Assembly: GCA_963801165.1 (NCBI GenBank)
Contig: CAWDDT010000004.1
Location: 448,001 to 512,000 of the forward strand
DNA from: an uncultured bacterium
GTDB taxonomy: Bacteria; Actinomycetota; Acidimicrobiia; Spongiisociales; UBA5794
Length of the DNA: 64,000 nucleotides
Direction of reading: 5' to 3'
In this document: piece after piece, positions 13,278 through 55,670 of the stretch
Position numbering within the stretch: position 1 is the first letter of the stretch
Layout of the letters: each line of letters begins with the position of its first letter
Notes under the pieces: model-generated
Databases searched by the model: none
The model's input: the letters and a program-made list of their open reading frames with translations, nothing else
Told to the model about the DNA's origin: nothing
Translations under genes and position numbers: made by a program

Positions 13278-14258
13278 TCAACGTTGAGCCTTCTCGTCGG
13301 TGGTTGGTCGATGCCCGATCTCCAACCCGGCGAGGTTGCTCTCGCCCCGATACTCGAGACGTCCGGTCACCTCGAGGGAGAGGTGTCCGCCCAGGTACTC
13401 GAAATCGGTGTCGATGTTGCGTCGTTGTGCCGGTAGCGGTACGGGCAGTACGTGTGGTTCGCCGACGCCGTGCCCGATGATGCGCACGCGATAGCCGTGA
13501 CCGCGACCATCTACTTCCCACCGTTGGCCGTCGGTCTCGCCGCGCACGCGGGAGAAGGGCGGAGCGAGGCGGATCACCCTGGCGCCGATGCGGACCACGA
13601 TCCCCCCGACCTGCGCGGAAAGAGGTCCTGCTGTCAGCAGGCCCCCGCCGAATGCGACGCATACATCGGGCCGGTCGAAGCCTTGGGCCTGACCCCACCA
13701 CCAGTGCTCTGGAAACCCGGCTCCCCAGTTCTTCTCGGCGTACACCTCGGCGTCGATGATCTCCCATTCCTGATCACCGACGCGGGCGGTGCCTTCTGCT
13801 GCACCACCGAGCAGGTGCGGGTGCCAGTACTGGCCGAGAAATGGCAGTGCCGAGAACAGGCCGCCGCCTCCGAGGACCAGCGGCCACGTGACAGGCCGAC
13901 TCAACGACAGGTCGGCACCGGCGTCGGGACCGAGATCGATGTGGACCCCGGTCTCAGTCGCAGTGAACTTTCCGTCCCCCGCGGTGACGAGGAATCGGTC
14001 CGAAGCGGCGGCGGCTCCATCGAGCACCGCGGAGCGGACAAAACCACCAGGATGCGCAGCGATCGCCACCGTCGCCCATTCACCATTCGGATGTCGGTTC
14101 ACGCCGCACAGCACGACGAGCACGCGCTGGTGGGCCACGTCGGTGACTCGCCAGAAGTAGCCCTCCATTTCCGCTCCATGGGACGGCCGCGGGTCACCGA
14201 GGGGGAGGTTTGCGCCCGTGCGCCGATAGATCGAGTCGAGACGGGCGAAGACTGTCAC
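13278..14258 (-). CDS. Tocopherol cyclase family protein
   Basis: MEGYFWR, YAEKNWGAGFPEHWWWGQ; GTG start re-called. Confidence 0.8.
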   Translation of the reverse strand: MTVFARLDSIYRRTGANLPLGDPRPSHGAEMEGYFWRVTDVAHQRVLVVLCGVNRHPNGEWATVAIAAHPGGFVRSAVLDGAAAASDRFLVTAGDGKFTATETGVHIDLGPDAGADLSLSRPVTWPLVLGGGGLFSALPFLGQYWHPHLLGGAAEGTARVGDQEWEIIDAEVYAEKNWGAGFPEHWWWGQAQGFDRPDVCVAFGGGLLTAGPLSAQVGGIVVRIGARVIRLAPPFSRVRGETDGQRWEVDGRGHGYRVRIIGHGVGEPHVLPVPLPAQRRNIDTDFEYLGGHLSLEVTGRLEYRGESNLAGLEIGHRPTTDEKAQR

Positions 14259-14518
14259 GAGGCAGGGACGGCCTCGTCCAACACCTGCAGAGGCTCGGCC
14301 TCGAGACGCATGCGGCAACCCTCGCCGTCGGGGGTCAGCGCCTCCGTGAGCGATGCCCGACCGTTGCTCTTCGATCGGCCCTCGATCCGAATCAACTTGT
14401 CGGTCTCCACCTCGACGGTCATTTCCGAGAACTCCGGAAGGCGCTCTACGTACGACCGCAATGCGAATACGCGGTCCGGCGAGCACGAAACGACAGCTTC
14501 GTCGGCGATCTTGCTCAT
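14255..14518 (-). CDS. Small SRPBCC-like hypothetical protein
   Basis: VVSCSPDRVFA N-terminus and LTPDGEGCRMRL; stop overlaps next start. Confidence 0.45.
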   Translation of the reverse strand: MSKIADEAVVSCSPDRVFALRSYVERLPEFSEMTVEVETDKLIRIEGRSKSNGRASLTEALTPDGEGCRMRLEAEPLQVLDEAVPAS

Positions 14519-14687
14519 CTGGCTTCCTCCGGGTGTACAGCCGTTGAACAGACCGCACGTGGCAATACCCGCTACCCGACTTGGAGCGCACCCTACCATC
14601 GCAGGTGGGCGTCCGTTATGGGGACCATCGTGAAGCGCGATGGAGCGGCATCGTCACGCTGGGAACGTTCCACGGGGCCAACCAATC

Positions 14688-14730
14688 GGCGTCCCGGGAG
14701 GATTCGAACCTCCGATACCCGGTTTAGGAA
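14688..14730 (-). repeat. 3'-half copy of tRNA-Arg(CCT) (att scar, outer island boundary)
   Basis: ggcgtcccgggaggattcgaacctccgatacccggtttaggaa matches 19404-19447 with about 3 differences. Confidence 0.9.
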
Positions 14731-14904
14731 CGTGTTGCAGCCGAATCCCTGGGTGCTCATGTAGGGCCACGAATAGCTGGGGGTTCCCATCCGAAATGTT
14801 GTCGATTCGCCCCATATTCATTGAGGAATCAACAACTTGGGTTGTTGTTCGGCGTGTCGAATTCGCTGGTTTCTCAGGCCTGCGAAGTGCCCAAGATTCT
14901 CCAT

Positions 14905-15050
14905 GCCGGTTGCTGCGCGGCTACTCCTTCCATATTTTGAGACGCATCTCAACCCAGTGTTTGGGGATCAGCGCATCATTGACATTGCGCAACCGGCGGT
15001 TCAGAGCGTTGTTGCGGCTGGGAGCGCCGAGCGCGCTCCTCAGACCCGAT
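14905..15050 (+). pseudogene. Possible tyrosine integrase core-binding domain remnant
   Basis: FETHLNPVFGDQRIIDIAQPAVQSVVA resembles the integrase SAM-like segment; next to att scar. Confidence 0.4.
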
Positions 15051-15188
15051 CGACAAAACGATTCTCTTGCGGGCAACGGTCAACGGATAGCGCACCCAGC
15101 GTGTGCCTTCGGGGTGGCTGCCTCGACAACCGGTCGCACGAACGACTTGAAACAACGGAGGGCGGTACCGCCGCACTCCCCTCCGATT

Positions 15189-15596
15189 TCAGCCCCACAC
15201 GAGCACGAGGATGGCTGCGACCACTACGAACAGTGTCGAGTACTCCATCCCCCATAGGGCTACCGGTGACCCGTCGCCGATGATGAACACCAGACCGGCG
15301 AGGGTGGCCGCGATGGTCGCGGCCGCCGTCACCCCGGTGGCGACACGCCGGCGGGTGTCGGGGAGCCGCAGCGTGTAGACGAAGCTTCCGGTGCTGAGCC
15401 CCACCAACAGGAGGCCGATTGCGATGTGAAGCCCGAGGTCCCGGTGGCCGAACGGGGGACCGCTCATCAGGGCGGATCCGAGAAGACCCTCCCACACCAC
15501 GAGGATGAGGATCACGAGCGCCAGGATCCTGAGCACTGTGTTCTTCTGCCGGCGGACGTTCACGCCGGTGGGCTGTGCGGATTGGTGCTCGGTCAT
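15189..15596 (-). CDS. Small 4-TM membrane protein
   Basis: Four hydrophobic helices; coupled to upstream TetR. Confidence 0.65.
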   Translation of the reverse strand: MTEHQSAQPTGVNVRRQKNTVLRILALVILILVVWEGLLGSALMSGPPFGHRDLGLHIAIGLLLVGLSTGSFVYTLRLPDTRRRVATGVTAAATIAATLAGLVFIIGDGSPVALWGMEYSTLFVVVAAILVLVWG

Positions 15597-16222
15597 GGGA
15601 ATGGTCCTTTCGTCGCGTCGGCCCGGATAGGCAAGTCGATGCCGAGGATCCGCCACACGGAACGGGTGAGCGCATGTAGCGCATCGTCAGGGCTCATTCG
15701 CCCGCCTCCGACTTCGTTTGCGGCCGCGTGGGTCAGACTCATGAGCGCGGCCACGATCCAGTTGGCTGAGAGGCGGGGGTCGAAGTCGCCGGTGCGTTGG
15801 CCCCGTTGGATCAGCGGCACCAGCCGATCGAGGATCGGGCCATGCCCCGTCTGCTCCTCCTCGGGTCGCATCGGGAGCGTCGGCAGCGTGAATACCCGGT
15901 TCTCGATGGAAGTATCCCAATTGGTTTCGATGAATCGCTGCAGCGCAGCGGCGGGAGGACCTTCATTTAGCGTGGCGCGGTCCAGCGCCGTGATCGCTCG
16001 GTTCAACGTGCGCGTCAAAACGGCACGGATCAGCTCGTCTCTCGAGGGGTAATGGGAGTAGACGGTTTGTCGAGCCAAACCTGCGGCTCGAGCGATGTCT
16101 TCGATGGTTGCGTCGGGCCGCTCGCCAAGCGTCTCGGCGGCGGCATCGAGAATCGACTCCATGTTGCGCTCGGCGTCCGCACGGAGCCGGCGAGCTGGCG
16201 TATGTGATGTGTTCGAGGACAT
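15593..16222 (-). CDS. TetR/AcrR family regulator
   Basis: RADAERN..IARAAGLARQTVYSHYPSRDEL. Confidence 0.92.
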   Translation of the reverse strand: MSSNTSHTPARRLRADAERNMESILDAAAETLGERPDATIEDIARAAGLARQTVYSHYPSRDELIRAVLTRTLNRAITALDRATLNEGPPAAALQRFIETNWDTSIENRVFTLPTLPMRPEEEQTGHGPILDRLVPLIQRGQRTGDFDPRLSANWIVAALMSLTHAAANEVGGGRMSPDDALHALTRSVWRILGIDLPIRADATKGPFP

Positions 16223-16424
16223 GAGTGTCTATGTTAACAGCGTGATGTGTCATTCTAGCGAGCAAATTCGAGTTAACTACGACAGCCTCGTCTAAGTTAT
16301 CGTCGACCATGATCGAAGCGTGGCCGGGACCGTCGTCACTCGAGATACAAGATGGGATTGACCTTTCGACTCCCTCCGCGATTCCCGACCGATATTCCAC
16401 CGACGCAGATCTCCAGTGTTTTCA

Positions 16425-16492
16425 GCGCCCGGGAGGATTCGAACCGCCTTCACCGTCTTGGGAGACCGGTTCGCGTAGGTTTAGGAAACCGG
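16425..16492 (-). repeat. Degenerate tRNA-Arg 3'-half (16425-16469) plus a second anticodon-arm core GGTTTAGGAAACCGG (16478-16492)
   Basis: Direct alignment to the intact tRNA. Confidence 0.8.
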
Positions 16493-16666
16493 CCAGGACA
16501 CTTTCCGGTGTCTCTCGTCGATTGTCGTCTTCTGCGAGATCGTCAATGTTTACGGGGGATTCCCACCGATTCGCTGAATGCGGCCTTTGCGTCGTTTTGT
16601 GTCGTTTCTCGACCTGTGACGGACCGTTGAAGCGAGATTTGCTGATAGGGGTTCAATCGGTCTCTC

Positions 16667-16678
16667 GTTACATGTAAC
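16667..16678. promoter_or_regulatory. Palindromic operator GTTACATGTAAC upstream of antitoxin
   Basis: Perfect 12-bp palindrome ending 9 nt before ATG 16687. Confidence 0.55.
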
Positions 16679-16686
16679 ATCAGAGC

Positions 16687-16908
16687 ATGGCTACACCCCA
16701 AGAGAGGTCTTCCGTCTCGAATCGAGTACGCAACTACCGCAAGCGGATGCGGGCACAAGGAATGCGGCCAATCCAGATCTGGGTGGCGGACGTCCGCTCT
16801 CCGGACTTCGCTGCTGAAGCACACCGCCAGGCCGCGGCCGTCGCCAACAGCAAGCACGCCGCCGACGATCAGGCATTCATCGATGCGCTCAGTGTCGACG
16901 ACAAGTGA
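16687..16908 (+). CDS. MazE-like antitoxin (DUF3018 type)
   Basis: RVRNYRKRMRAQGMRPIQIWVADVRSPDF. Confidence 0.88.
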   Translation: MATPQERSSVSNRVRNYRKRMRAQGMRPIQIWVADVRSPDFAAEAHRQAAAVANSKHAADDQAFIDALSVDDK

Positions 16909-17237
16909 GACGCTCCGAGGTCTGGACGGCCGCAGCCGGGACTGGCTACAGCGGCAAACCGCGGCTCGTCGTGATCATTCAGGACGACCGGTTTGATGCC
17001 ACCGACTCGGTGACGGTGTGCGCTTTCACCACTGACCCGACAGAGGCGCCGCTGATCCGTCTCCCCGTTGTGCCCGATGAGCAGAACGGTCTTCGCGAGA
17101 CAAGCAGTCTCATGGTCGACAAGATCACAACCGTTCCCCGATCCAAGCTTGGTGAACGAATCGGCCGCCTAGCCGACCAAGACATGCTTAGGCTCGGGCG
17201 TGCCGTCGTGGTGTTCTTCGGACTGGCAGGCGACTGA
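16905..17237 (+). CDS. mazF: PemK/MazF family toxin
   Basis: GKPRLVVIIQDDRFD..NGL..SSLMVDKITTV; overlaps antitoxin stop. Confidence 0.9.
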   Translation: MRRSEVWTAAAGTGYSGKPRLVVIIQDDRFDATDSVTVCAFTTDPTEAPLIRLPVVPDEQNGLRETSSLMVDKITTVPRSKLGERIGRLADQDMLRLGRAVVVFFGLAGD

Positions 17238-17361
17238 CCACTCCAACCATGGCGTGAAGCCCTGCAAACGCGATACAGGATGTCAACGGTCAGTGTTCGC
17301 CCAGCAAGCGGATACGTGAGGATCTCGCTCACTCGAGAAACTGATCGTTATCACCCGATAT

Positions 17362-18206
17362 TTGTTGTATGTGCTTCCTCGCTTTGCTCGGGCATCCCTG
17401 GGGAGCATTCAGGCCGTTGACATCCGGGAGTGGTTGGCAGACCTCGATCGTTCGGGTCTGTCGGCGTCGCGAATCCGGCAGGCGTACTTCCTGCTGGCGC
17501 AGATTCTCCGCTCGGCCGTCGAGTCCGGTCATCTGGCGAAGGACCCGTGTGTCGTGGTGAAGCTTCCGCGCATGCAGGTACCCGAGATGCGATTCCTGTC
17601 CGTGGAACAGGTCGAGGCGCTGGCTTCAGCCATTCGTGAACCGTATGGTGTCCTTGTCAACACCGTTGCCTACGGCGGTCTGCGATGGGGCGAGGCGGTA
17701 GCCCTGGACGGGAACGATGTGAGCTGCTGCGTTCCCGGGTCCATGTGGCGGAATCGCTCTCCGAGACCTCCGAAGGGCTTCTATTCGGTGCCACAAAGAC
17801 ATATCAGCGCCGAACGGTGGTGATACCGGGATTCCTCCGGGATCAACTGGCGGAGCATCTGGCGACTCGCGTCGAAATCGCCGAGGATGCACTCGTCTTC
17901 ACCTCCCCAGGCGGCGAGCCCTTGCGCCGAGGCAACTTCAGCCGGCGGGTGTGGAAGCCCGTGCTCGCGGCAGCGCGTCTTGACGTTCGGCCGCACGAAC
18001 TCCGCCATACCTGTGCCGCGCTGCTCATCGCCGAGGGGGCGCATCCCAAGGCGGTGCAGGCTCAGCTCGGACACTCGTCGATCCAGGTCACTATGGATCG
18101 GTACGGGCATCTGTTTCCCTCTGCCGCTGAGGAGCTCGCTGGTCGTCTGGATGCTGTGCATCGACGGAAGCAGACGCTCGAGACTCCGGGGATTTCTATT
18201 GCATGA
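17362..18206 (+). pseudogene. Tyrosine integrase, N-terminally truncated, frameshift near 17710
   Basis: AYGGLRWGEA, PHELRHTCA, LGHSSIQVTMDRYGH split across two frames. Confidence 0.85.
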
Positions 18207-18248
18207 AAGAAACAAGTGTTCGATTTATGACGGGTGTTTGTTATCATA

Positions 18249-18877
18249 TGGACATGGATTTCGTTCGACCCGTTGAGGCAATCGTTCCCGGTGTCCAGGG
18301 CCGGGTTCTGTCCGTGCTGGCGGAGACAACTGCCGACCTCAACATGAGGACGATCGCTCGTCTCGCTGATGTCAGTCTGGCGCAAGCCTCGCGCGTGCTG
18401 GCGCGGTTGGTCGACCTTGGCGTTGTGGAGCGGCGTGACGTGCCTCCTTCGTCACTCTTTCGTCTGGTTCGCCAGCATGTGGCCGCGGGTCCGTTGCTTG
18501 CTTTGGCGAGAGGCCGGGATGCGTTGATAGGCGAGATGGGGCGCCTCGCGGCCGGGCTCCCTGTGGTGCCCTTGTCGGCGATTGTCTTCGGATCCTTTGC
18601 GCGAGGCGAGGCAGATATCGACAGCGACATCGACATGGTGCTCGTCCGCCCCGCGGGTGTCGATGAGTCCGACGAGTCGTGGTGGGAGGCGGTCGAGCAG
18701 TGGCGGACTTCGGTGCGCCGGGCTAGTGGCAACCGGGTTGAAGTCCTCGAGGTTGGCTCCGACGAGGTCGCAGCGTTGCTGAACAGCCGGCGGCAGGTAT
18801 GGCGTGACATTCGGCGCGATGGCCTGGTCGTGCACGGCCTGAGCCTCGCCGATCTCAAGGATGGATCACGTGGCTAG
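18249..18877 (+). CDS. wHTH plus minimal nucleotidyltransferase (MNT) antitoxin-like protein
   Basis: N-terminal HTH; FGSFARGEADIDSDIDM motif. Confidence 0.85.
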
Positions 18878-19276
18878 GAGCGGGCGAACCCGGTCCGTCA
18901 CGGCGAGTCAAGCGCGGCGGTATCTGGCGAAGGCCGAGGAGTACGTTGAGGCGCATCCAGCGAACTCGACGCTCAACGGGGCATCGCTGCGACGGGTCTG
19001 GCCATCCATGCCGCGATCAACGCTGCCGATGCCGTGTGCGGTGTCCGCCTCGGGGAGCGAGCCGTCGGCGAGGATCACGATGAGGTGCTCGTACTGCTGA
19101 AGACGGCCGGCAAGGATGGTGTCGAAGTTGAGAAAGAGCTTCGACGGCTACTTCCGTTGAAGACCAAGGCTGAGTACGACCCCGACAATGTCTCGCTCCC
19201 GACGGCATCAAAGGCAGTTGCGCGAGCGCAAAGATTCGTCGCAGTCGCTCGACGTGTCGTGGCGTCGCTGAGGTGA
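18870..19276 (+). CDS. HEPN-domain protein (frameshift near 18955)
   Basis: YLAKAEEY..AIHAAINAADAVC..LKTKAEY across two frames; coupled to MNT. Confidence 0.7.
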
Positions 19277-19405
19277 TTCGCGGCTTGTCGGCGGCGGCTT
19301 CCAACGAACTCTGACGGACACTAGACGGACAGTACGGGCTCTAAGCGTCGCTGTGGGCATCGCCCGAAATGCCGATATCCGTTCTCACACAGCGAATACC
19401 TGAGG

Positions 19406-19478
19406 CGCCCCCGGGAGGATTCGAACCTCCGACACCCGGTTTAGGAAACCGGTGCTCTATCCCCTGAGCTACGAGGGC
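19406..19478 (-). tRNA. tRNA-Arg(CCT)
   Basis: GCCCTCG TAGCTCAGGGGATAGAGCA CCGGT TTCCTAA ACCGG GTGTC GGAGG TTCGAAT CCTCC CGGGGGC G; full cloverleaf, no encoded CCA. Confidence 0.97.
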
Positions 19479-19484
19479 GAAATA

Positions 19485-20633
19485 TCAAGAATAGCCCGAA
19501 AAATCAGCCTTTCCGGAGTCCTCGGGTAGGGCAACAATGTTGTCAGATGTGCGCTTGGGCCGCACCTGGGCCGCACTGTAACGAGCATCCATCGATTCTG
19601 CGAGGCTATCGAGGTCGTCTTCGAACAGATGAGCGTACCGATCGAGAGTGATCTGCGCCGACGAATGGCCCAGCATTCTTTGCACCGCTTTCACGCTCGC
19701 GCCGGCCGAGATCGCCAGACTTGCCGCCGTGTGTCGCAAGTCGTGGGGCACGAGATCGCCAAGCCCGAGGTCGGCCACTGCAGGCTTCCACACCCTCCGC
19801 AAGAAGTTCGGGGAACGGAGAGGTTGACCGGTCGACGATGCGAACACGAGATCGCCGCCGGCGAGCGTAGGAGCCAACTCGTCCATCAGAAACCTCGGGA
19901 TCACAATCGTTCGGGACCGATGCGACTTCGGAGTGCCCCAGACGAGCTTGCCGTTGACCAGGGTGGCCGATTCCCTCACATAAACCCGGTGCCGCAAGAC
20001 ATCCACGTTGTCCGACCTGAGCGCCACCGCTTCGCCCCAGCGCAGGCCACCGTAGGCGAGGAGCTTGACCAGCTGGGCACCTCCACGCATCCTCTGCTCC
20101 ACCGCATCGGCCAGCTCGGTCACCTGCGTCGCGGTCAGATACCGTTGGTCCCGTTCGGCCGTCTTGGGCACTTTCACCGTCTCTGCCGGATTCCGCCCGA
20201 TGAGGCCGTCATCCACTGCTTGCGTCAGCACCGCGGAGACGACCCGTTTCGCCTGGCCCATCCGCGACGCCGAAAGCCCGTCCGCGGCCATAGCGGCGAC
20301 CCACGCCCTGAGGAAGTCCGGGTTGATCCGTCTCAGTTCGACGGAACCCAGCGCAGGCAAGATCCGTGAATCGAGCAACGAGCGGTAGCCGGCGATTGTC
20401 TTTGGCTTGAGGACGAGGCCTTGAAACCATTCCTCGGCATAGTCTTCGAATCGAACGGCGCCGGCACTCGGGTCAACCCACAGACCGCGGTCCTGCTTCT
20501 GGAGCTCGTCGCGCAGCCATCGCTCGGCATCGACCTTGCGGTCGAACGCCCTCGAGTGTTCCCGCCCGTCAGGGCCCCGGTACCCAGCCCGCCACGGTGT
20601 GGGTCGATCAGGTCGTTTGCGAATCCATCCCAT
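19485..20633 (-). CDS. int: Tyrosine recombinase/integrase
   Basis: GLRWGE, HDLRH, LGH, DRYAH catalytic motifs; start re-called to MGWIRKR. Confidence 0.95.
   Translation of the reverse strand: MGWIRKRPDRPTPWRAGYRGPDGREHSRAFDRKVDAERWLRDELQKQDRGLWVDPSAGAVRFEDYAEEWFQGLVLKPKTIAGYRSLLDSRILPALGSVELRRINPDFLRAWVAAMAADGLSASRMGQAKRVVSAVLTQAVDDGLIGRNPAETVKVPKTAERDQRYLTATQVTELADAVEQRMRGGAQLVKLLAYGGLRWGEAVALRSDNVDVLRHRVYVRESATLVNGKLVWGTPKSHRSRTIVIPRFLMDELAPTLAGGDLVFASSTGQPLRSPNFLRRVWKPAVADLGLGDLVPHDLRHTAASLAISAGASVKAVQRMLGHSSAQITLDRYAHLFEDDLDSLAESMDARYSAAQVRPKRTSDNIVALPEDSGKADFSGYS
19553..19575. repeat. Arm-type integrase site candidate GCTTGGGCCGCACCTGGGCCGCA (copy 1)
   Basis: Tandem TGGGCCGCA; identical copy at 25603-25625. 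Confidence 0.7.
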
Positions 20634-20689
20634 TAGAACTCCGGAGCGTAGCCGTCTGTTGTGACGGCGGACTAGGCGAAGACATCTGT

Positions 20690-20878
20690 TCATCGGTCGG
20701 CCCTCTTCTGGTTCTCGATCCACTCCGCGACGTCGGTCCACTGGTAGCGGATGTGCCTTCCCACACGGAACCCACGTGGTCCTTCCCGGCGATACCTCCA
20801 CTGATACAGCGTCGTCGCCGGAACGCCGAGATAAGCGGCGAGGTCGTGCACGGTGAGCAGCCGGTCGCGAGGTGTCAT
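20690..20878 (-). CDS. Excisionase/AlpA-type HTH protein
   Basis: LLTVHDLAAYLGVPATTLYQWR..GPRGFRVGRHIRY. Confidence 0.9.
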   Translation of the reverse strand: MTPRDRLLTVHDLAAYLGVPATTLYQWRYRREGPRGFRVGRHIRYQWTDVAEWIENQKRADR

Positions 20879-20910
20879 GACCCAATCGTCTGCTCCGACC
20901 CTGTCATCAG

Positions 20911-21047
20911 CCTGTTATTTCGTTGCACCTGGACCTGTCATTGGGTCGGAAACGCTGATTTGGCGGGCGAATTCGACGGGTGGGCCTTTTCGTTATCGCG
21001 GCCGGCTGGGACCCCAATGACAGGGTAGATGGCAACGAAATAACAGG
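20911..21047. repeat. Long imperfect inverted repeat (oriT or regulatory candidate)
   Basis: cctgttatttcgttgc..cctgtcattgggtc (20911-20947) versus gaccccaatgacagg..gcaacgaaataacagg (21010-21047). Confidence 0.7.
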
Positions 21048-21230
21048 GTCGGCACGTCTACTCACGGGTATGAGACCGCCGACAGGCCCCAACCATCGCC
21101 GAAGATCCCGCTACGGCAATCCTCAAGCCGACACGACCATGGTCGCCGCCACGGCACTGGTACCGCTTCGACTGTACCGACGGCCTGATCGACACACGCA
21201 TCTGCAACCAGTTGCTTCAGGTGGTGTTCC

Positions 21231-23975
21231 GTGTTGAGTCTGGCGAAGGCGGTCAAGGACTACTACCTGCAGAAGCTGGGTGAGATCTCACCACGGGAGG
21301 ACTACTACCTACGGGGCGGTACGGCGACCGGTCGTTGGTGCGGCTCGGGAGCCGCCGAACTCGGTCTCACGGGTGCCGTGTCGGCGGAGGGTTTGGTGCG
21401 GCTGTTTGACGGGAACCATCCCGACACGGGCGAACAGCTGGGTCGCCGTCTCCGTGAAGACGGGGTGGCGGCGTGGGATGTGACCTTCTCGGCGGACAAA
21501 TCGGTGTCGCTGTTGTGGGCGTTGGGTGACGAACTGACCCGCAAGGAAGTCGTCGAGGCGTTCGAGGAAGCAACGTCACAAGCATTCGAGTATCTGGAGT
21601 CGGTAGCCTCATTCACTCGCGGCGCCACCAAGACACCGATCACCGACGAGAACGGGAACCCGGTCCGTGGCCCGAATGGTCGGCTGAGGTATCGGGTGGA
21701 GACCTGGCCGATAGCGACATCGGGGTATGTGGCGGCGGCGTTCACCGAGTACACGTCACGGGCCGACGACCCACAACTGCACACCCATGTCGTCGTTGCC
21801 AACAAGGTCAAAGGCGCCGATGGGGTGTGGCGCACCATCGACGGCCGCCTGTTGTATCGGCATCAGCTCGCCGCCGGCTACCTGCACGAGGCGGTACTAC
21901 GTCGCGAGTTGACCCAGCGGTTGGGGGTGCGGTGGCAGCCGATACACCACGGTGTCGCCGACATTGCCGGGTTCACCCTTGGCCAGATCGAGGCGTTCTC
22001 GCAGCGGCGCCGACAACTCGAAACCTGGCGACAGGAAGAGAGTCTTCCGGATACGGCGGCGGCGCGGCAGGTAGCGGTGATCGCTACCCGCACCGCCAAG
22101 ACCAACCGCTCTCTCGACGAGCTGGAAGAGGTCTGGCAGCGACGAGCCGTAGAGGTCGGTCTCACCCCAGAGAGGATCGGTCGGATTGTCAATCGGAGCA
22201 TGGAGGTCACGTCACCCGACCGTGAAGCACTGTTTGCGGACCTGGCATCACCAGACGGGCTCACCGCACACAAGTCGACATTCGCCGTACCAGAGGTCAT
22301 CCAACATGTCGCCGCTGCACTCCCCGAGGGAGGCACCCGGACCGAGATCGAAGCCCTCGCCGACACATTCCTGAAGGGCAGCGACATCATTCCGCTCCTC
22401 CCCAGCCCGCAACTCGAACCCCCAGCTCAAGCCGGAACGAACTCGCTTGCCGAGCCGAACGGCCGACAGCTCGTCGATGAGGCACGGGTGCCTGTGATGC
22501 GTACCCGTCGCGGTGAACCGTTCCCCGCACCGACCCTGCCCAGCTACACCACCGCCGAGCTCCTGGCCACCGGGCAGCGGATCGTCGACTACGCAATGGC
22601 CGGCGTCGGTCAGGGTCGTTGGCAGGCACCGCACCGGCTCGTTGAAACGTGGCTACGCAACAGACCGGAACTCACCGACGGGCAACGCCAGATTGTGCGC
22701 AGCTTCGCAACCTCCGGCAACACCGTCGATATCGGTATCGGTCCTGCCGGCAGTGGCAAGACCGCCGTTGTCGCCGTCGTCAACCAACTCGCCCAACTCA
22801 CCAGACGACCCATCATCGGAGCTGCCCTCGCCGCTCGCACCGCATCCGGCCTCCAAACCGACACCGGCGTCCCCTCCACCACCCTCGCCCGACTCCTCAG
22901 CCGAGCCCAACACGGATCCAGTCTTCCTACCGGTGTGGTGGTGGTCGTCGACGAAGCTGGCATGGTCGGCACCCGGCAGCTCGCTGCCGTCGTCGATCTT
23001 GTCGACCAAGCAGATGGCAAACTGGTCCTGGTCGGGGATGACAAGCAACTCCCCGAGATCGACGCCGGCGGTCTGTTCCGTGCCCTCGCCATGAGGCTGC
23101 CAGCCGTCGAACTCACCGACAATGTGCGTCAGCAGGCGGCCTGGGAACGCCAAGCACTCGACGAGCTCCGCAACGGATCCGTACAACAGGCAATGCAGGC
23201 CTATGTCGAGCATCGGCGTCTCGTCCTCGGCCGCAACCGTACCGATGCGGTCACCAGAGCCTGTGCTGACTGGTATCGGTACGTCCGGTCATCCGGCGAG
23301 ATAGGTTCGGCGCTGCTCATCGCCCACGACAACGACACCGTCACCCAACTCAACGAAAAGGCACGACAGCACCTCGCCGCCTCCGGGCACCTCCACGGAC
23401 CCACACACCAAGCGGCAGGCATCGTGCTCCAGGCTGGTGACCGGATCCTCTGCCGCCGAAACCGATATGAGCTCGATGTCCTCAACGGCGACCTCGGCAC
23501 CATCACCGTCGTAGACCAGGATGCGGGAACGGTCACCGTCCGTCTCGACCGAGACCCCGAAACCCGAGAGCTACCGGACTGGTATCTCAACGACGCGAAA
23601 GTCGGCTACGGATACGCCCTCACCGCCCACAAAGCCCAAGGCATCACAACCGGGCGCACCTTCACCGTCATCACCGGAACCACCGACCGGGAATGGGCCT
23701 ACGTCGCCCTCAGCAGAGGCCGCAACGCCAACACCCTCTACCTCGCATCTCCCGAACCCGGCCACCAGGAATGCTCCCACCTCACCCACCAGACACGGCA
23801 GCAGAGAGCTGATGCTCCTTGTGCATTCCTCACCCGCAGCAGGGCACAGATCGCGGCTACCGACAGAGAAGAACCGCGAGGGGCAGGTCTCTTCGTTGTT
23901 GTTGGCCACGACGGGGCAACCTGTGCGCGCCGGTTGACACAGTCCCGCCCAGGGTTGCCGGTCTTCGGTTGGTAG
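21231..23975 (+). CDS. MobF/TrwC family relaxase-helicase
   Basis: DYY..DYY tyrosines, DVTFSADKSVS, SRADDPQLHTH, GPAGSGKT, VVDEAGM, YALTAHKAQG. Confidence 0.93.
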   Translation: MLSLAKAVKDYYLQKLGEISPREDYYLRGGTATGRWCGSGAAELGLTGAVSAEGLVRLFDGNHPDTGEQLGRRLREDGVAAWDVTFSADKSVSLLWALGDELTRKEVVEAFEEATSQAFEYLESVASFTRGATKTPITDENGNPVRGPNGRLRYRVETWPIATSGYVAAAFTEYTSRADDPQLHTHVVVANKVKGADGVWRTIDGRLLYRHQLAAGYLHEAVLRRELTQRLGVRWQPIHHGVADIAGFTLGQIEAFSQRRRQLETWRQEESLPDTAAARQVAVIATRTAKTNRSLDELEEVWQRRAVEVGLTPERIGRIVNRSMEVTSPDREALFADLASPDGLTAHKSTFAVPEVIQHVAAALPEGGTRTEIEALADTFLKGSDIIPLLPSPQLEPPAQAGTNSLAEPNGRQLVDEARVPVMRTRRGEPFPAPTLPSYTTAELLATGQRIVDYAMAGVGQGRWQAPHRLVETWLRNRPELTDGQRQIVRSFATSGNTVDIGIGPAGSGKTAVVAVVNQLAQLTRRPIIGAALAARTASGLQTDTGVPSTTLARLLSRAQHGSSLPTGVVVVVDEAGMVGTRQLAAVVDLVDQADGKLVLVGDDKQLPEIDAGGLFRALAMRLPAVELTDNVRQQAAWERQALDELRNGSVQQAMQAYVEHRRLVLGRNRTDAVTRACADWYRYVRSSGEIGSALLIAHDNDTVTQLNEKARQHLAASGHLHGPTHQAAGIVLQAGDRILCRRNRYELDVLNGDLGTITVVDQDAGTVTVRLDRDPETRELPDWYLNDAKVGYGYALTAHKAQGITTGRTFTVITGTTDREWAYVALSRGRNANTLYLASPEPGHQECSHLTHQTRQQRADAPCAFLTRSRAQIAATDREEPRGAGLFVVVGHDGATCARRLTQSRPGLPVFGW

Positions 23976-24081
23976 GCGACGTGGCAAGGTTGATGGCGCG
24001 CTGAGGTGTGCTCGAGCACCGGTGCCACCGTGCCATGTGCGACACTGACGTCGGTCGACGCTTGGCACCGGCGGGTGCCTG

Positions 24082-24882
24082 CTATTGGTCGGTGAGGACG
24101 CAGAGCGCGAACGGGTAACCGTCGATGAGTTCGGCGGGTCCGAGGACGTCCGGGCAACGGTGGGTCCACTCGTCGATCGTGTCCTCGTAGCCGGGTGGTG
24201 CAGGGCCGTTGTTGACCATACCCCAGGAGGTCCAGAGACGTTGTGAACAGCTGAAACCACCGTCGGCGGTCGCGACGTCTATGCCGCCGTCTTCGGTATA
24301 GACGGTGAAGTTCATCGTGGCAGCCAGTTCGTCGGCGATACCGCTTGTCGAGACGATCAGCGAGCGGAGCACGAAGCTTTCGTCGCGGCTGGCCCGATCC
24401 GTCAGGTAAGCGGCCAGAGTGGCCCTGTCGAACGACTCGGGTTGGATTCGGGGCTGGCTGTCACCTGTGATGGAGAAGAACAGGAACCCGCTCTCCGCGA
24501 TCTGGCTCTCGGCGGCGGCCGGATCCGAGGTCAAGTCTGACAGGAGCCGCTGCGACGATTCAGCCACCGTAGTGGCATCACATTCGCTCGACGCAGGAGC
24601 GGCTGAGACCGGTGCCGACGTGGTGACGACAGTCGTGTTGGCCGACATTGTGGTCGCGGTCGGTCCAGTCGTGGTGGTCGCAGATGTGGCGCCTGCGGAT
24701 CGAGGCAGCTCAGCCGTGTGCGTAATCCAGAGCATCGAGCCAACGAGCGCGACTGTCACGAACGCGGCAAGTGCGAATACCTTCAACCGTCCTCTCGCAT
24801 GGGGTGGCTGCGGTACCGGTACATCCTCGAGCCGTGCGTTGAGACGAGATCCCGCCCGAAGTAGTTCATCGTCGAGGCTCAT
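24082..24882 (-). CDS. Single-pass membrane protein, putative anti-sigma factor
   Basis: Short cytoplasmic N-terminus, TM helix, Thr-rich linker; overlaps sigma factor 3' end. Confidence 0.6.
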   Translation of the reverse strand: MSLDDELLRAGSRLNARLEDVPVPQPPHARGRLKVFALAAFVTVALVGSMLWITHTAELPRSAGATSATTTTGPTATTMSANTTVVTTSAPVSAAPASSECDATTVAESSQRLLSDLTSDPAAAESQIAESGFLFFSITGDSQPRIQPESFDRATLAAYLTDRASRDESFVLRSLIVSTSGIADELAATMNFTVYTEDGGIDVATADGGFSCSQRLWTSWGMVNNGPAPPGYEDTIDEWTHRCPDVLGPAELIDGYPFALCVLTDQ

Positions 24883-25426
24883 CCTCGTTACCTCCTATTC
24901 CGAGACGCTTCGCCAATGTCTGCTTGGCGCGGCTGAGATGGGTCTTGACTGTTTCGTCGGAACAACCCAACACCTCGGCCACTTCTCGCCGAGACATTCC
25001 GCCCAGATACACGAGTGCCACTGCCTGCGCCTGTCGGTGAGGCAACCGCCGAACCTCACGCCATAGGTCAAGCCGGGCTTCAATGTCCAGCCCTGGATAG
25101 CTCGTGGGCGTGGAAGCGAGACGTAGCAGTGCACGAGCCCGGGACCTAGCTCGACGCAACCACGAAACCGAGCTGTTCGTCACCACCGTTCGTACCCACG
25201 CACCCGGATTATCCATCTGACACACCCTGTGCCAATTGCGGAGCGTCGCCACAAACGCTTCCTGCGCCAACTCTTCGGCCACGGCTTGGTCGCCCGAGAG
25301 CACGATTGCCAGCCCCAGCACCTGGCGGTACTGGCGGCGATAAAACGTCTCGAAACTCTCGCTAGCTCTCACCAGCGGCAGGTCATTCACCCGACTCAAC
25401 TCACTCCATGTCCGAATCGTTGCCAC
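24866..25426 (-). CDS. ECF sigma-70 factor
   Basis: AEELAQEAF (region 2); LPHRQAQAVAL..VAEVLGCSDETVKTHLSRA (region 4). Confidence 0.93.
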   Translation of the reverse strand: MATIRTWSELSRVNDLPLVRASESFETFYRRQYRQVLGLAIVLSGDQAVAEELAQEAFVATLRNWHRVCQMDNPGAWVRTVVTNSSVSWLRRARSRARALLRLASTPTSYPGLDIEARLDLWREVRRLPHRQAQAVALVYLGGMSRREVAEVLGCSDETVKTHLSRAKQTLAKRLGIGGNEDEPRR

Positions 25427-25433
25427 GCCTAAT

Positions 25434-25464
25434 AAAACGCATCAGCGACATCATTTGGGGGACA
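25434..25464 (-). promoter_or_regulatory. Putative ECF-type promoter TGTCCCCC-N17-CGTT
   Basis: Directly upstream of sigma GTG; conserved in second copy at 54661-54690. Confidence 0.55.
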
Positions 25465-25602
25465 TCATCGCGAAAGAAGGCCAGAAGCCGGCTTGCGGGA
25501 TCTGCTACCGCTGCGCCACCTACAGGCGATGCACCCAATGACCGGGCTAGCTACCCAACACACCGCGCCAGTTCGTCGGCCAGTAGCATCTCTCCGCTGC
25601 GG

Positions 25603-25625
25603 GCTTGGGCCGCACCTGGGCCGCA
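25603..25625. repeat. Arm-type integrase site candidate (copy 2)
   Basis: Identical to 19553-19575. Confidence 0.7.
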
Positions 25626-25729
25626 ACGGACGTGAGAACATGAGAAATGATGAAAGACGATGAGAGGCGAAATCGCCCGGAAAATCAGGCTTTCCGCCGG
25701 TTTGCCCTGGTAGACAAAGACCCCCAAAA

Positions 25730-25771
25730 CGGTTTAGGAAACCGGTGCTCTATCCCCTGAGCTACGAGGGC
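25730..25771 (-). repeat. 5'-half copy of tRNA-Arg(CCT) (att junction)
   Basis: Exact match to 19437-19478, ends at the anticodon arm. Confidence 0.95.
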
Positions 25772-25777
25772 GAAATG

Positions 25778-25930
25778 TCAAGAATAGCCCGAAAAATCAG
25801 CCTTTCCGGGATCCACGGGCAGGTCCACAACATCGTCGGATATGCCCCTGGGCCGCACCATAACGAGCATCCATCGACTCTGCTAGGCAATCCAGGCCAC
25901 CTTCGAACAGGTGTGCCAACCGACCTAGAG
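25778..25930 (-). pseudogene. Decayed C-terminus of an older copy of the integrase
   Basis: AHLFEGGLDCLAESMDARYGAAQ versus AHLFEDDLDSLAESMDARYSAAQ in the intact integrase. Confidence 0.85.
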
Positions 25931-26000
25931 TGGCCCGGGAACCGTCGGCGGCTATCGGATCGTCCAAGTCACCGAGAGAACTCGCCCGGGGGTACACAGA

Positions 26001-26885
26001 ATGAACCGGTCCGTCCCTGTCCTCATCGTCGTGGCGCTTCTGATCGGTGGCTGCGTGGATTCGCGTCCAGAACAGGCGAACGACACCGGCTCCGGCGTAA
26101 CGGTGTCCGCATTGCAGGCTCCGCACGTCACCGACTCGGGCGATCAGAAACCGCCGCCCCTCGAGATTGGCACGTCGGCCGAGCGAGTCGAGGTACCGGG
26201 ATATGACTACACCTGGGGTGCCGACGATTCGGAGATGGGTGTTTCTGCCGACTCGTTTGGTCGCGAGGAGCCAACCCCGCTAACGGTCGATACCTCGACA
26301 GTCCCGGTGCAATGGATAGACGGGGCGGTATTGTCGGCGTCGGTGTCGCTCGAAGGGGATAAGTGTGACACCCCGCTGCTCGAGCCTTCCGGGCCGGGCG
26401 AATGGGTTCTTGCCATGCCGCCGGCTCCCGGTACCTACCGGGTCGGGTTCTATGGCACGTCAGGTCGGTGGAAGAGTCTATTTGCCATCATGTTGACCTC
26501 GACGGTGGAAGGCCCGCCCCTGACACCGCACGCAGAGGTGTGGTGGCCCGACACGATCGACCGGTTCCAGCCGTACGTAGAGATCGCCGGTCCGCCAGAC
26601 AACGCAACCATGACGCTGAGGGTCTCGGCGACGGGCGCCGATGCGACGACTCTCGTACTTGACCGGGTACCGCCGAGCGAGCACCCCCAAAGTTGTCCTC
26701 CGACGTTCCGTATCGGCGACGAGACTCCCTTCTCACGCAACACGGAGCTACCCGGAAACCCTCCGTACACCATCTCCCTCCTTGTCGAATCCCCTGAAGG
26801 TGATTATGAGGCGAGCTGGCGCTGGCCCGACGACCTCAACCCAACTGGCAAACTCGTGGGATCGATGACAGAGACATCGAGCTGA
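26001..26885 (+). CDS. Lipoprotein of unknown function
   Basis: Signal peptide with lipobox LIGGC; Pro/Thr-rich. Confidence 0.7.
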   Translation: MNRSVPVLIVVALLIGGCVDSRPEQANDTGSGVTVSALQAPHVTDSGDQKPPPLEIGTSAERVEVPGYDYTWGADDSEMGVSADSFGREEPTPLTVDTSTVPVQWIDGAVLSASVSLEGDKCDTPLLEPSGPGEWVLAMPPAPGTYRVGFYGTSGRWKSLFAIMLTSTVEGPPLTPHAEVWWPDTIDRFQPYVEIAGPPDNATMTLRVSATGADATTLVLDRVPPSEHPQSCPPTFRIGDETPFSRNTELPGNPPYTISLLVESPEGDYEASWRWPDDLNPTGKLVGSMTETSS

Positions 26886-26988
26886 CATGACATCCGACAC
26901 CAATTTCCCCCGTTCGACCATCCGCGGCAGATTCTTCGGGCTCTCCGTTGTAGACGAAACGCCCCAACGCGGTCGACGAAACGGCGCC

Positions 26989-27032
26989 AACGCCGCCGGA
27001 TCGCATAGACCGCCGGGTTGTCTCCGCGTGGC
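26989..27032. repeat. 44-bp direct repeat, copy 1
   Basis: aacgccgccggatcgcatagaccgccgggttgtctccg(c/a)gtggc, also at 55627-55670. Confidence 0.85.
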
Positions 27033-27522
27033 CCGCCACCGAACTCCCATTCGACCATCCGCTGCAGTGGTGGCCTCTACGTGGCTGCGAACCCGCGAGG
27101 TCCAGCCGTTGTCAAACACGGATTCCTCGTCGACCTCGACGCTTGACTGCACCCACATCGCCCTGCGTTTTATACGTCGCGAATGTAGATGTAGGAACTC
27201 GTCCGTTGAGCGCCCAAGGTCGCGAGCGGGCAGCTGCATCGACCGGTATCGCTCCCTCGCGATGTCGCTGTCGACCGCTTACAGGAGAATCTCCAGGTCT
27301 CGTCGAATGGCGGAGGCCGCCTCCCGGAAGTGGGCCGCGACCTCAAGGAGCGCGGTGGGATGTGATCCCGGTTGGCTGACCCAGTTTCTCGAACGCTGCC
27401 CGGCAGAGTTCAACGCCTTGTGTGTGCATCACTCGATCCGGATCGCAAATCGATCGCCCAGGAGAATACGAGCCAATAGGGATCCAGAGCGCTAGCCGCG
27501 TCGCAGAATCGCCTCCGCCAGG

Positions 27523-55626: not shown

Positions 55627-55670
55627 AACGCCGCCGGATCGCATAGACCGCCGGGTTGTCTCCGAGTGGC
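55627..55670. repeat. 44-bp direct repeat, copy 2
   Basis: Matches 26989-27032 with 1 mismatch. Confidence 0.85.

Follow-up and report, generated by a model that had tools for sequence, protein, structure and literature searches.

How far can a tRNA gene be rebuilt by a mobile element that enters it from the 5′ side, and does such an element also have to bring the promoter? The question is raised by a tRNA-Arg(CCT) gene of an uncultured Acidimicrobiia bacterium (UBA5794; GenBank assembly GCA_963801165.1). We analyzed it within 64,000 nucleotides of contig CAWDDT010000004.1 (positions 448,001 to 512,000 of the forward strand), hereafter the window, to which all coordinates refer. An initial annotation had proposed that an integrative mobilizable element replaces the 5′ half of this gene and probably its promoter. 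Our analysis indicates that, with high probability, a 6293-bp integrative mobilizable element has inserted site-specifically in the anticodon stem-loop of tRNA-Arg(CCT), with reversed polarity, and supplies the 5′ part of the gene. The features that define the locus are the following.

19404..19478, minus strand: tRNA-Arg(CCT), found by ARAGORN, the sole gene with a CCT anticodon found in the genome
19437..19478, minus strand: attachment-site core attR, nucleotides 1-42 of the tRNA, the 5′ part from the element up to the crossover; identical to 25730-25771
25730..25771, minus strand: attachment-site core attL, the displaced chromosomal nucleotides 1-42 of the tRNA, found by repeat comparison
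19485..20633, minus strand: tyrosine integrase of 382 amino acids (Pfam Phage_integrase PF00589, 6.3e-23, and a SAM-like N-terminal domain; start set by alignment of homologues)

Whole-genome ARAGORN analysis listed one Arg(cct) and one Arg(tct) gene. Direct comparison of 19437-19516 with 25730-25809 gave 1 mismatch in 80 positions, and this repeat is composed of 38 nucleotides of upstream sequence and tRNA nucleotides 1-42, ending in the 3′ strand of the anticodon stem. The two cores differ at 0 of 42 positions. The 80-bp duplication holding the tRNA 5′ half thus stands as first annotated, but not as the full length of the repeat: similarity continues at 89% identity over 130 nucleotides and, past an 11-nucleotide indel, at 82% up to 19650/25932. 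The ends of the element are spaced 6293 bp apart. On the minus strand, TAT TCT TGA at 19493..19485 closes the integrase open reading frame (ORF), with the TGA at 19487..19485; 6 nucleotides follow, and then tRNA nucleotide 1 (19478). Both the sequence and the ARAGORN prediction therefore agree with the earlier statement that the integrase is co-oriented with the tRNA and stops 6 nucleotides before it, and the TATTCT that had been noted there is indeed formed by the last two sense codons (19493..19488). The locus has the layout of an Islander-type island: a full tRNA gene (19478..19404), a co-oriented copy of its nucleotides 1-42 upstream (25771..25730), an integrase gene (19485-20633) inside the interval, and a length of 6293 bp, within the 2-200 kb range.

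Integration was further examined in relatives, cited below by handle (G000 is the genome of the window). Among species-representative genomes, all seven close integrase homologues (74-91% identity) end ~6 nucleotides before a co-oriented tRNA-Arg(CCT), which answers the question, posed at the outset, whether such homologues consistently end just before tRNA 5′ ends. G005, which belongs to the same genus as G000, has a 97% identical integrase. In the four other genomes with long contigs (4/4) a 42-nucleotide 5′ fragment lies upstream of the full tRNA, with intervals of 13.3 kb in G005, 18.3 kb in G031, 17.8 kb in G032 and 10.6 kb in G033. The fragments of G031-G033 are preceded by unrelated native sequence devoid of integrase-like sequence, and clean 5′ fragments with native flanks are found in G007 and G004 as well. 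The most direct comparison is offered by two genomes of one genus, G002, with an empty attB site and a full tRNA, and G007, with an occupied attL site. They have ~300 nucleotides of upstream flank and tRNA nucleotides 1-42 in common and split exactly after nucleotide 42 (ACCG), from where G002 continues into the tRNA 3′ part and G007 into the element arm. Six further relatives (G018, G025, G028, G030, G020 and G034) carry native upstream regions that are unrelated. Overall, when 133 genomes of the family were scanned, integrase-through-tRNA matches turned up in at least 9 and clean 42-43-nucleotide 5′ fragments in at least 14. As judged from these sequence comparisons, the locus is the product of a real integration into the 5′ part of tRNA-Arg(CCT); the conclusion comes from the homologues, the distal fragments and the G002/G007 pair, and not from the repeat alone. 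The same three lines of data bear out the originally proposed replacement of the tRNA 5′ half by element DNA.

For the upstream flank at 25940-27500, none of 30 relatives offered a counterpart. The flank of G008 matches only a P-type ATPase gene at 57024-58069, and the outer chromosomal boundary was accordingly not located.

The attachment sites suggest how the reaction would proceed. Short tandem repeats accompany both cores.

19553..19577, minus strand: 11-bp tandem repeat of the P arm (GTGCGGCCCAG, two copies), located within the tail of the integrase gene; candidate arm-type sites
25603..25626, minus strand: 11-bp tandem repeat of the P′ arm (two copies), oriented as in the P arm; candidate arm-type sites

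Across the five elements compared, the 11-bp unit is present in 1-4 tandem copies within -118 to -85 of the P arm: GCGGCCCA stands at -96 and -85 in G000, G032 and G033, at -96 only in G005, and in four copies in G031. In the P′ arm it stands at +147 and +158 past the 5′ fragment in all five elements, with 2-4 copies spanning +147 to +180, and it is found in G007 too. Five of the six copies of GCGGCCCA in the 13.5 kb of the window examined lie no more than 160 nucleotides from the two cores. Their placement points to arm-type integrase binding sites. Since the copy number shifts the sequence by 11 bp, the integrase tail has no constant reading frame, and the integrase ORF of G031 runs into the tRNA. 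The place of strand exchange can be narrowed down from fragments in relatives: 3′ fragments of tRNA-Arg(CCT) begin at nucleotide 27 and 5′ fragments stop at nucleotide 42-43, so that their overlap is the anticodon stem-loop. A crossover in the anticodon loop would fit this overlap, crossover sites of such integrases being usually centered on the anticodon.

The polarity of the target is what sets this integrase apart. Twelve other integrase-family loci were found in the genome; five have no tRNA within 1.8 kb, and seven lie 36-195 nucleotides from a tRNA, all seven being convergent with it. The nine co-oriented Arg(CCT) integrases form a single clade among these paralogues (100 in the Shimodaira-Hasegawa-like approximate likelihood ratio test, SH-aLRT). 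Comparison of the convergent paralogues with the co-oriented clade therefore indicates that the order of integrase gene and core has remained unchanged, and that the target is inverted relative to it. The attP core directly follows the integrase stop codon and carries tRNA nucleotides 1-42, and tandem 11-bp repeats occupy both attP arms, with the P-arm set lying within the integrase C-terminal tail. Integration thus displaces the chromosomal 5′ part to 25730-25771 and rebuilds the gene from element DNA. The crossover would fall in the anticodon loop, and the tRNA would be transcribed from the TATTCT in the last integrase codons.

The gene content of the interval fits an integrative mobilizable element. 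The integrase itself is a tyrosine recombinase by its motifs, its translation displaying HxxR (HDLRH) and the tyrosine motif LDRYAHL. A 466-residue ORF extending to 20885 is an over-read: homologues align only from residue 81, the integrase proper starts at 20633, and the first 80 codons are an out-of-frame reading across a separate gene for a protein of 62 amino acids. The remaining features of the element are listed below.

20690..20878, minus strand: excisionase-like helix-turn-helix gene (xis), 62 amino acids (Pfam HTH_17, 1.1e-12; NCBIfam TIGR01764 excise, 2.7e-7); ORF kept in five relatives
20911..21047, no strand: two inverted repeats, one nested in the other, in the interval separating xis from the relaxase gene; 16-nucleotide outer arms (CCTGTTATTTCGTTGC) that are 100% complementary and 105 nucleotides apart
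21231..23975, plus strand: MobF/TrwC relaxase fused to a RecD-like helicase, 914 amino acids (Pfam TrwC, 2e-76, and AAA_30, 1e-49; NCBIfam MobF, 1e-68)
24082..24882, minus strand: single-pass membrane protein, 266 amino acids, with one hydrophobic helix in the translation; overlaps the end of the sigma factor gene
24866..25426, minus strand: extracytoplasmic function (ECF) sigma factor of the SigE family, cargo (Pfam Sigma70_r2 and r4_2; NCBIfam TIGR02983, 4e-38)

The relaxase gene is divergent from xis-int and is kept at 64-87% nucleotide identity in the elements of G005, G032 and G033. Pfam and NCBIfam searches detected no coupling protein, type IV secretion system or FtsK-like gene in the element of G000, the 13.3-kb element of G005 or the 17.8-kb element of G032, where some ORFs are still unannotated. 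Likewise, the scanned ORFs include no FtsK/SpoIIIE-like Tra or replication-initiator Pfam domains of the kind that typify actinomycete integrative and conjugative elements (AICEs). The label of integrative mobilizable element, already given in the initial annotation, is appropriate because xis, int and the MobF relaxase are present and a transfer apparatus was not found. The cargo varies among relatives: the element of G005 has an ECF sigma factor and ORFs of unknown function, and that of G032 has sugar and redox enzymes. In G000, the membrane protein has no Pfam or NCBIfam match; its position next to the sigma factor gene would suit an anti-sigma-like partner. The 16-nucleotide inverted repeat encloses an inner pair, CCTGTCATTGGG / CCCAATGACAGG, and the whole of 20911-21047 is a candidate operator or origin of transfer. 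A related motif, ACCCAATGAC, occurs at 25533-25550, upstream of the sigma factor gene. Salt-marsh metatranscriptome contigs are identical to 24088-24333 in the membrane-protein gene and to 25109-25342 in the sigma factor gene. This hints at expression of the two genes, with DNA carry-over as another possible source of the contigs.

The extension of the repeat beyond the tRNA is best explained by an earlier event at the same site.

25772..25932, minus strand: scar formed by the last ~55 codons of an integrase, 82-89% identical to 19479-19650, interrupted by in-frame stops and lacking one 11-bp unit

This stretch adjoins a lipoprotein-like gene that starts at 26001 on the plus strand, and by its residual identity we interpret it as the scar of an earlier related element. 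In the simplest history, an earlier element would have integrated and decayed, leaving its tail before the tRNA, and the present element would then have integrated. The old scar would thus have replaced the native upstream region already by the time the present element arrived. Similar remnants occur elsewhere. In G008 one lies directly before the full tRNA, beside an MscS-type gene, and no 5′ fragment was detected there; remnants of a sister subtype of the element (type b) precede full tRNAs in G087 and G122; and of the type-a sequence only ~32 nucleotides are left in G145 and ~20 in G140. The initial annotation had counted integrase-like sequence upstream of the tRNA in element-free relatives as evidence against integration. 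Taken literally, such sequence does exist in G008, G087 and G122, but it leaves the integration reading standing, since what precedes the tRNA there is the truncated scar of an earlier integration, and since the upstream DNA of other relatives is native and unrelated.

The outer end of the scar is a separate observation. It falls at the identical nucleotide, between CA and CTCTCGATC in the catalytic-tyrosine motif (25932 in the window), in G000, G088 (locus L098) and G144 (locus L099). These represent three genera with unrelated flanks, and six other scars have different boundaries. The common boundary could mark a hot spot of deletion or else a secondary site of recombination. We also considered whether the scar boundary abuts a tRNA-Gly island and dropped this idea: the 94-nucleotide tRNA-Gly(ccc) reported by ARAGORN at 57752-57845 on the minus strand lies inside an ORF with a P-type ATPase hinge motif (…GDGINDVLALKDADVGVAV…) and is almost certainly a false positive.

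Several points weigh against the proposed integration of a mobile element that carries the tRNA promoter. The comparison genomes are mostly metagenome bins (the unpublished G021 underlies none of the conclusions), and the integrase tree is the result of a quick maximum-likelihood search with midpoint rooting and SH-aLRT values in place of bootstrapping. Among the assembled contigs of four public sequencing runs compared with 14000-27500, neither a joint at 19437/25730 nor a circle junction was seen. G005 has an orthologous scar (92% identity), and the int-relaxase backbones of G000 and G005 are 87% identical; as the two genomes have both scar and backbone in common, the element may owe its presence to vertical inheritance and not to recent acquisition. 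With respect to the promoter, a strict sigma-70 scan of 19300-21300 returned 0 promoters and no -35 match accompanying TATTCT, and TANNNT within 30 nucleotides of the tRNA is found in 0/7 type-b elements.

Transcription of the tRNA now relies on element DNA, as had been suggested from the outset. This follows from the geometry: 6.3 kb of element precede the full gene and the relaxase gene points away, so its promoter must be in element DNA. Where in the element it lies is a separate matter, for which the following feature is the candidate.

19488..19493, minus strand: TATTCT, candidate -10 box 9 nucleotides before tRNA nucleotide 1, in a position matching native upstream regions and the genome-wide peak

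TANNNT occurs 8-10 nucleotides before tRNA nucleotide 1 in most native upstream regions of this tRNA (11 of 14) and in all five type-a element or scar copies. For the 47 tRNAs of the genome, 29 TANNNT boxes were counted 6-16 nucleotides before nucleotide 1 (mode 10), as against 19 over the 38 positions 17-54. Even the short scars of G145 and G140 retain GGG(C)TATTCT in front of the full tRNA, with unchanged spacing. The tail of the type-b elements ends in …TAGATATACCAAGGGTTTCGTAACAATTC, conserved as the protein sequence KVD[I/V]PRVS, and since TANNNT is missing from the last 30 nucleotides in all seven, the family as a whole is independent of such a box. On balance, we are slightly inclined to regard TATTCT as the -10 box of the tRNA promoter. 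Of the original promoter proposal, then, the dependence on element DNA holds, and the identification of TATTCT is supported by its position and opposed by the strict scan and the type-b elements. Terminator-like hairpins at 19517..19495 and 25810..25788 are within shuffle expectation and were not taken as terminators because a similar inverted repeat lies in the P′ arm.

Among the rival explanations, the one that survives best accepts the same anatomy and has the tRNA co-transcribed with xis-int, or transcribed from another promoter in int, and then released by RNase P and 3′ processing. The co-orientation of int, its end 6 nucleotides before the tRNA and the G031 integrase ORF that extends into the tRNA all favor it, and the two negative promoter results given above would be expected under it. 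It is opposed by the full tRNAs of G008, G087 and G122, which are preceded by scars that contain neither int nor xis, so that the last ~125-200 nucleotides appear to suffice there. Other points against it are that TATTCT lies at the -10 distance preferred by the organism, and that integrase operons are usually expressed at a low level in the integrated state. We consider this explanation rather unlikely.

A little less likely still is that the element has become fixed, is passed on vertically as a relic and no longer moves, its repeats recording an old event. The scar and backbone common to the two congeneric genomes, and the lack of junctions among the assembled contigs, are what such a relic should display. 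It would be hard to reconcile with the intact ORFs of int, xis and the relaxase, with cores still free of differences and conserved arm repeats, with the different cargo of G000, G005 and G032, or with the occurrence of occupied and empty sites within a genus. Taken together, these features suggest an integrated element that is probably still mobile at present.

An assembly artefact, in which two strains were collapsed or joined into a chimera, deserves a mention since the genome is a bin with 5.6% contamination and an 80-bp near-identical repeat can mislead assemblers. It is very improbable, because the int-tRNA junction and the distal 5′ fragment recur on 390-830 kb contigs in four other assemblies; in addition, an independent soil-metagenome contig covers 18682-19501 with 1 mismatch. 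Finally, an SSV1-type integrase split by attP within its own gene, with 25772-25932 as the int(C) part, would account for the integrase C-terminal fragment at the far end of the element, but it can practically be dismissed, given that the integrated int is intact with its core beginning 6 nucleotides after the stop codon, that relatives have clean 5′ fragments with native flanks, and that the fragment contains stops and is only 82-89% identical.

The other side of the tRNA gene is occupied by mobile DNA as well.

16425..16490, minus strand: decayed tRNA 3′ fragment that ends island 1 (19403..16491), a classical 3′-side island
14693..14735, minus strand: second tRNA 3′ fragment, from the anticodon loop to the 3′ end, 97% identical to nucleotides 32-69; outer end of the tandem array
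17338-18197, plus strand: frameshifted integrase pseudogene in island 1
16905-17237: MazF-like toxin ORF
18203-18877: MarR/nucleotidyltransferase ORF
15593-16222: TetR-family ORF

Island 1 is absent in G005. Its integrase pseudogene was considered as a possible sister of the reversed-polarity clade and rejected, the nearest sequences being the Lys and Thr paralogues. With these tandem decayed 3′-side islands at 14693-19403, the tRNA has mobile DNA on either side. Should the usual logic hold, island 1 would have brought the 3′ part of the present gene, and the element studied here its 5′ part.

A few observations on related sequences stand apart from the above. One soil-metagenome contig joins position 22638, in the relaxase gene, to 19404, the 3′ end of the tRNA, with 32 other letters in between; it may represent a relative with a rearranged locus or a chimeric assembly. 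Two contigs of 2.5-3.9 kb with integrase and tRNA (L009 and L012), 89-91% identical to the window integrase, belong to bins whose titles read Acidobacteria and Planctomycetota, which means either incorrect binning or passage of the element between phyla. At locus L094 (G012:C75, 1816-4268), a 41-nucleotide 5′ fragment and a full tRNA lie 2.4 kb apart, separated by an ECF sigma factor and a 477-residue ORF with no integrase. Both tRNA copies there carry ~22 nucleotides of common native-type upstream sequence with TAAGCT, and the locus may represent an element in decay or another type of 5′-side insertion. Within the window, a 44-nucleotide stretch is repeated at 26989-27032 and 55627-55670 on the same strand with 98% identity, ~28.6 kb apart.

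The value of this locus lies in a well-delimited, family-wide case of tRNA integration with reversed polarity, for which occupied, empty and scarred sites are available in relatives and classical paralogues in the same genome. Two questions thereby become open to testing: by what route an integrase lineage comes to reverse the polarity of its target, a quasi-palindromic anticodon stem, and whether a promoter has to come along with an element that replaces the 5′ end of a gene. The overlap of integrase tail, arm repeat and likely tRNA promoter, and the persistence of such tails as scars, are further points worth testing. There is also a risk for annotation: such loci will be misread by island-finding programs geared to 3′ fragments and by ORF callers that merge xis and int into one gene. 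A broader view can be offered tentatively, with odds somewhat short of even. This clade might serially overwrite the promoter of a single-copy tRNA gene, its integrase tail serving as both recombination arm and promoter, and the last 20-200 nucleotides of decayed elements might stay behind as the resident promoter, as the scars of G008, G087, G122, G145 and G140 would exemplify. Both halves of the tRNA in the window, together with its promoter, would then be of mobile-element origin, the 5′ side deriving from the element and the 3′ side from the tandem array.

How does the locus compare with known systems? In the Islander database, 159 of 3919 islands carry a 5′ tRNA gene fragment (PMC4383910, Table 1). 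Recombination with the 5′-distal part of a tRNA is described as considerably rarer than that with the 3′ part in another report, which cites Zhao and Williams 2002 as a precedent (PMC6563490). In the light of these two sources, the locus is a well-supported further example of a rare insertion mode that has already been described; its rarity had been claimed correctly, though the kind was catalogued before (PMC4383910). A full-text literature search, in which many journals are outside coverage and which is accordingly weak evidence, returned nothing further on 5′-end tRNA integration in connection with attP or a promoter. The likeness to the Islander entries extends to a full tRNA, a 5′ fragment in direct orientation upstream, an integrase inside and an attachment site centered on the anticodon. 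The family studied here differs in consisting of Acidimicrobiia-like bins with tRNA-Arg(CCT) as the target and a MobF relaxase backbone, and is likened by definition and not by database entry.

Other systems share one aspect each. The element of Zhao and Williams 2002 reportedly has the polarity of its target tRNA reversed relative to int and attP, and is said to be a Mesorhizobium element that supplies a promoter; its host, tRNA and cargo differ from those of the present element. The classical anticodon-loop tyrosine integrases, represented by the seven paralogues in this genome, belong to the same family (30-51% identity), have attP right after the int stop codon and target tRNA genes. However, they are convergent with the tRNA and restore its 3′ part, whereas the clade studied here is co-oriented and restores the 5′ part. 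AICEs such as pSAM2 and SLP1, and integrative mobilizable elements, have in common with it an xis-int module, a tRNA target and an actinobacterial host. Unlike the AICEs, which carry FtsK-like Tra and Rep, the present element has neither among its detected genes and has a MobF relaxase instead, which by analogy would imply transfer by a helper apparatus. The scar has its closest parallel in the accretion described for ICESt3 and cis-mobilizable elements, where the truncated end of an older element is likewise kept beside the attachment site of a newer one. In contrast to that system, only ~160 nucleotides of integrase tail are left here, and in some relatives it is this tail that precedes the full tRNA.

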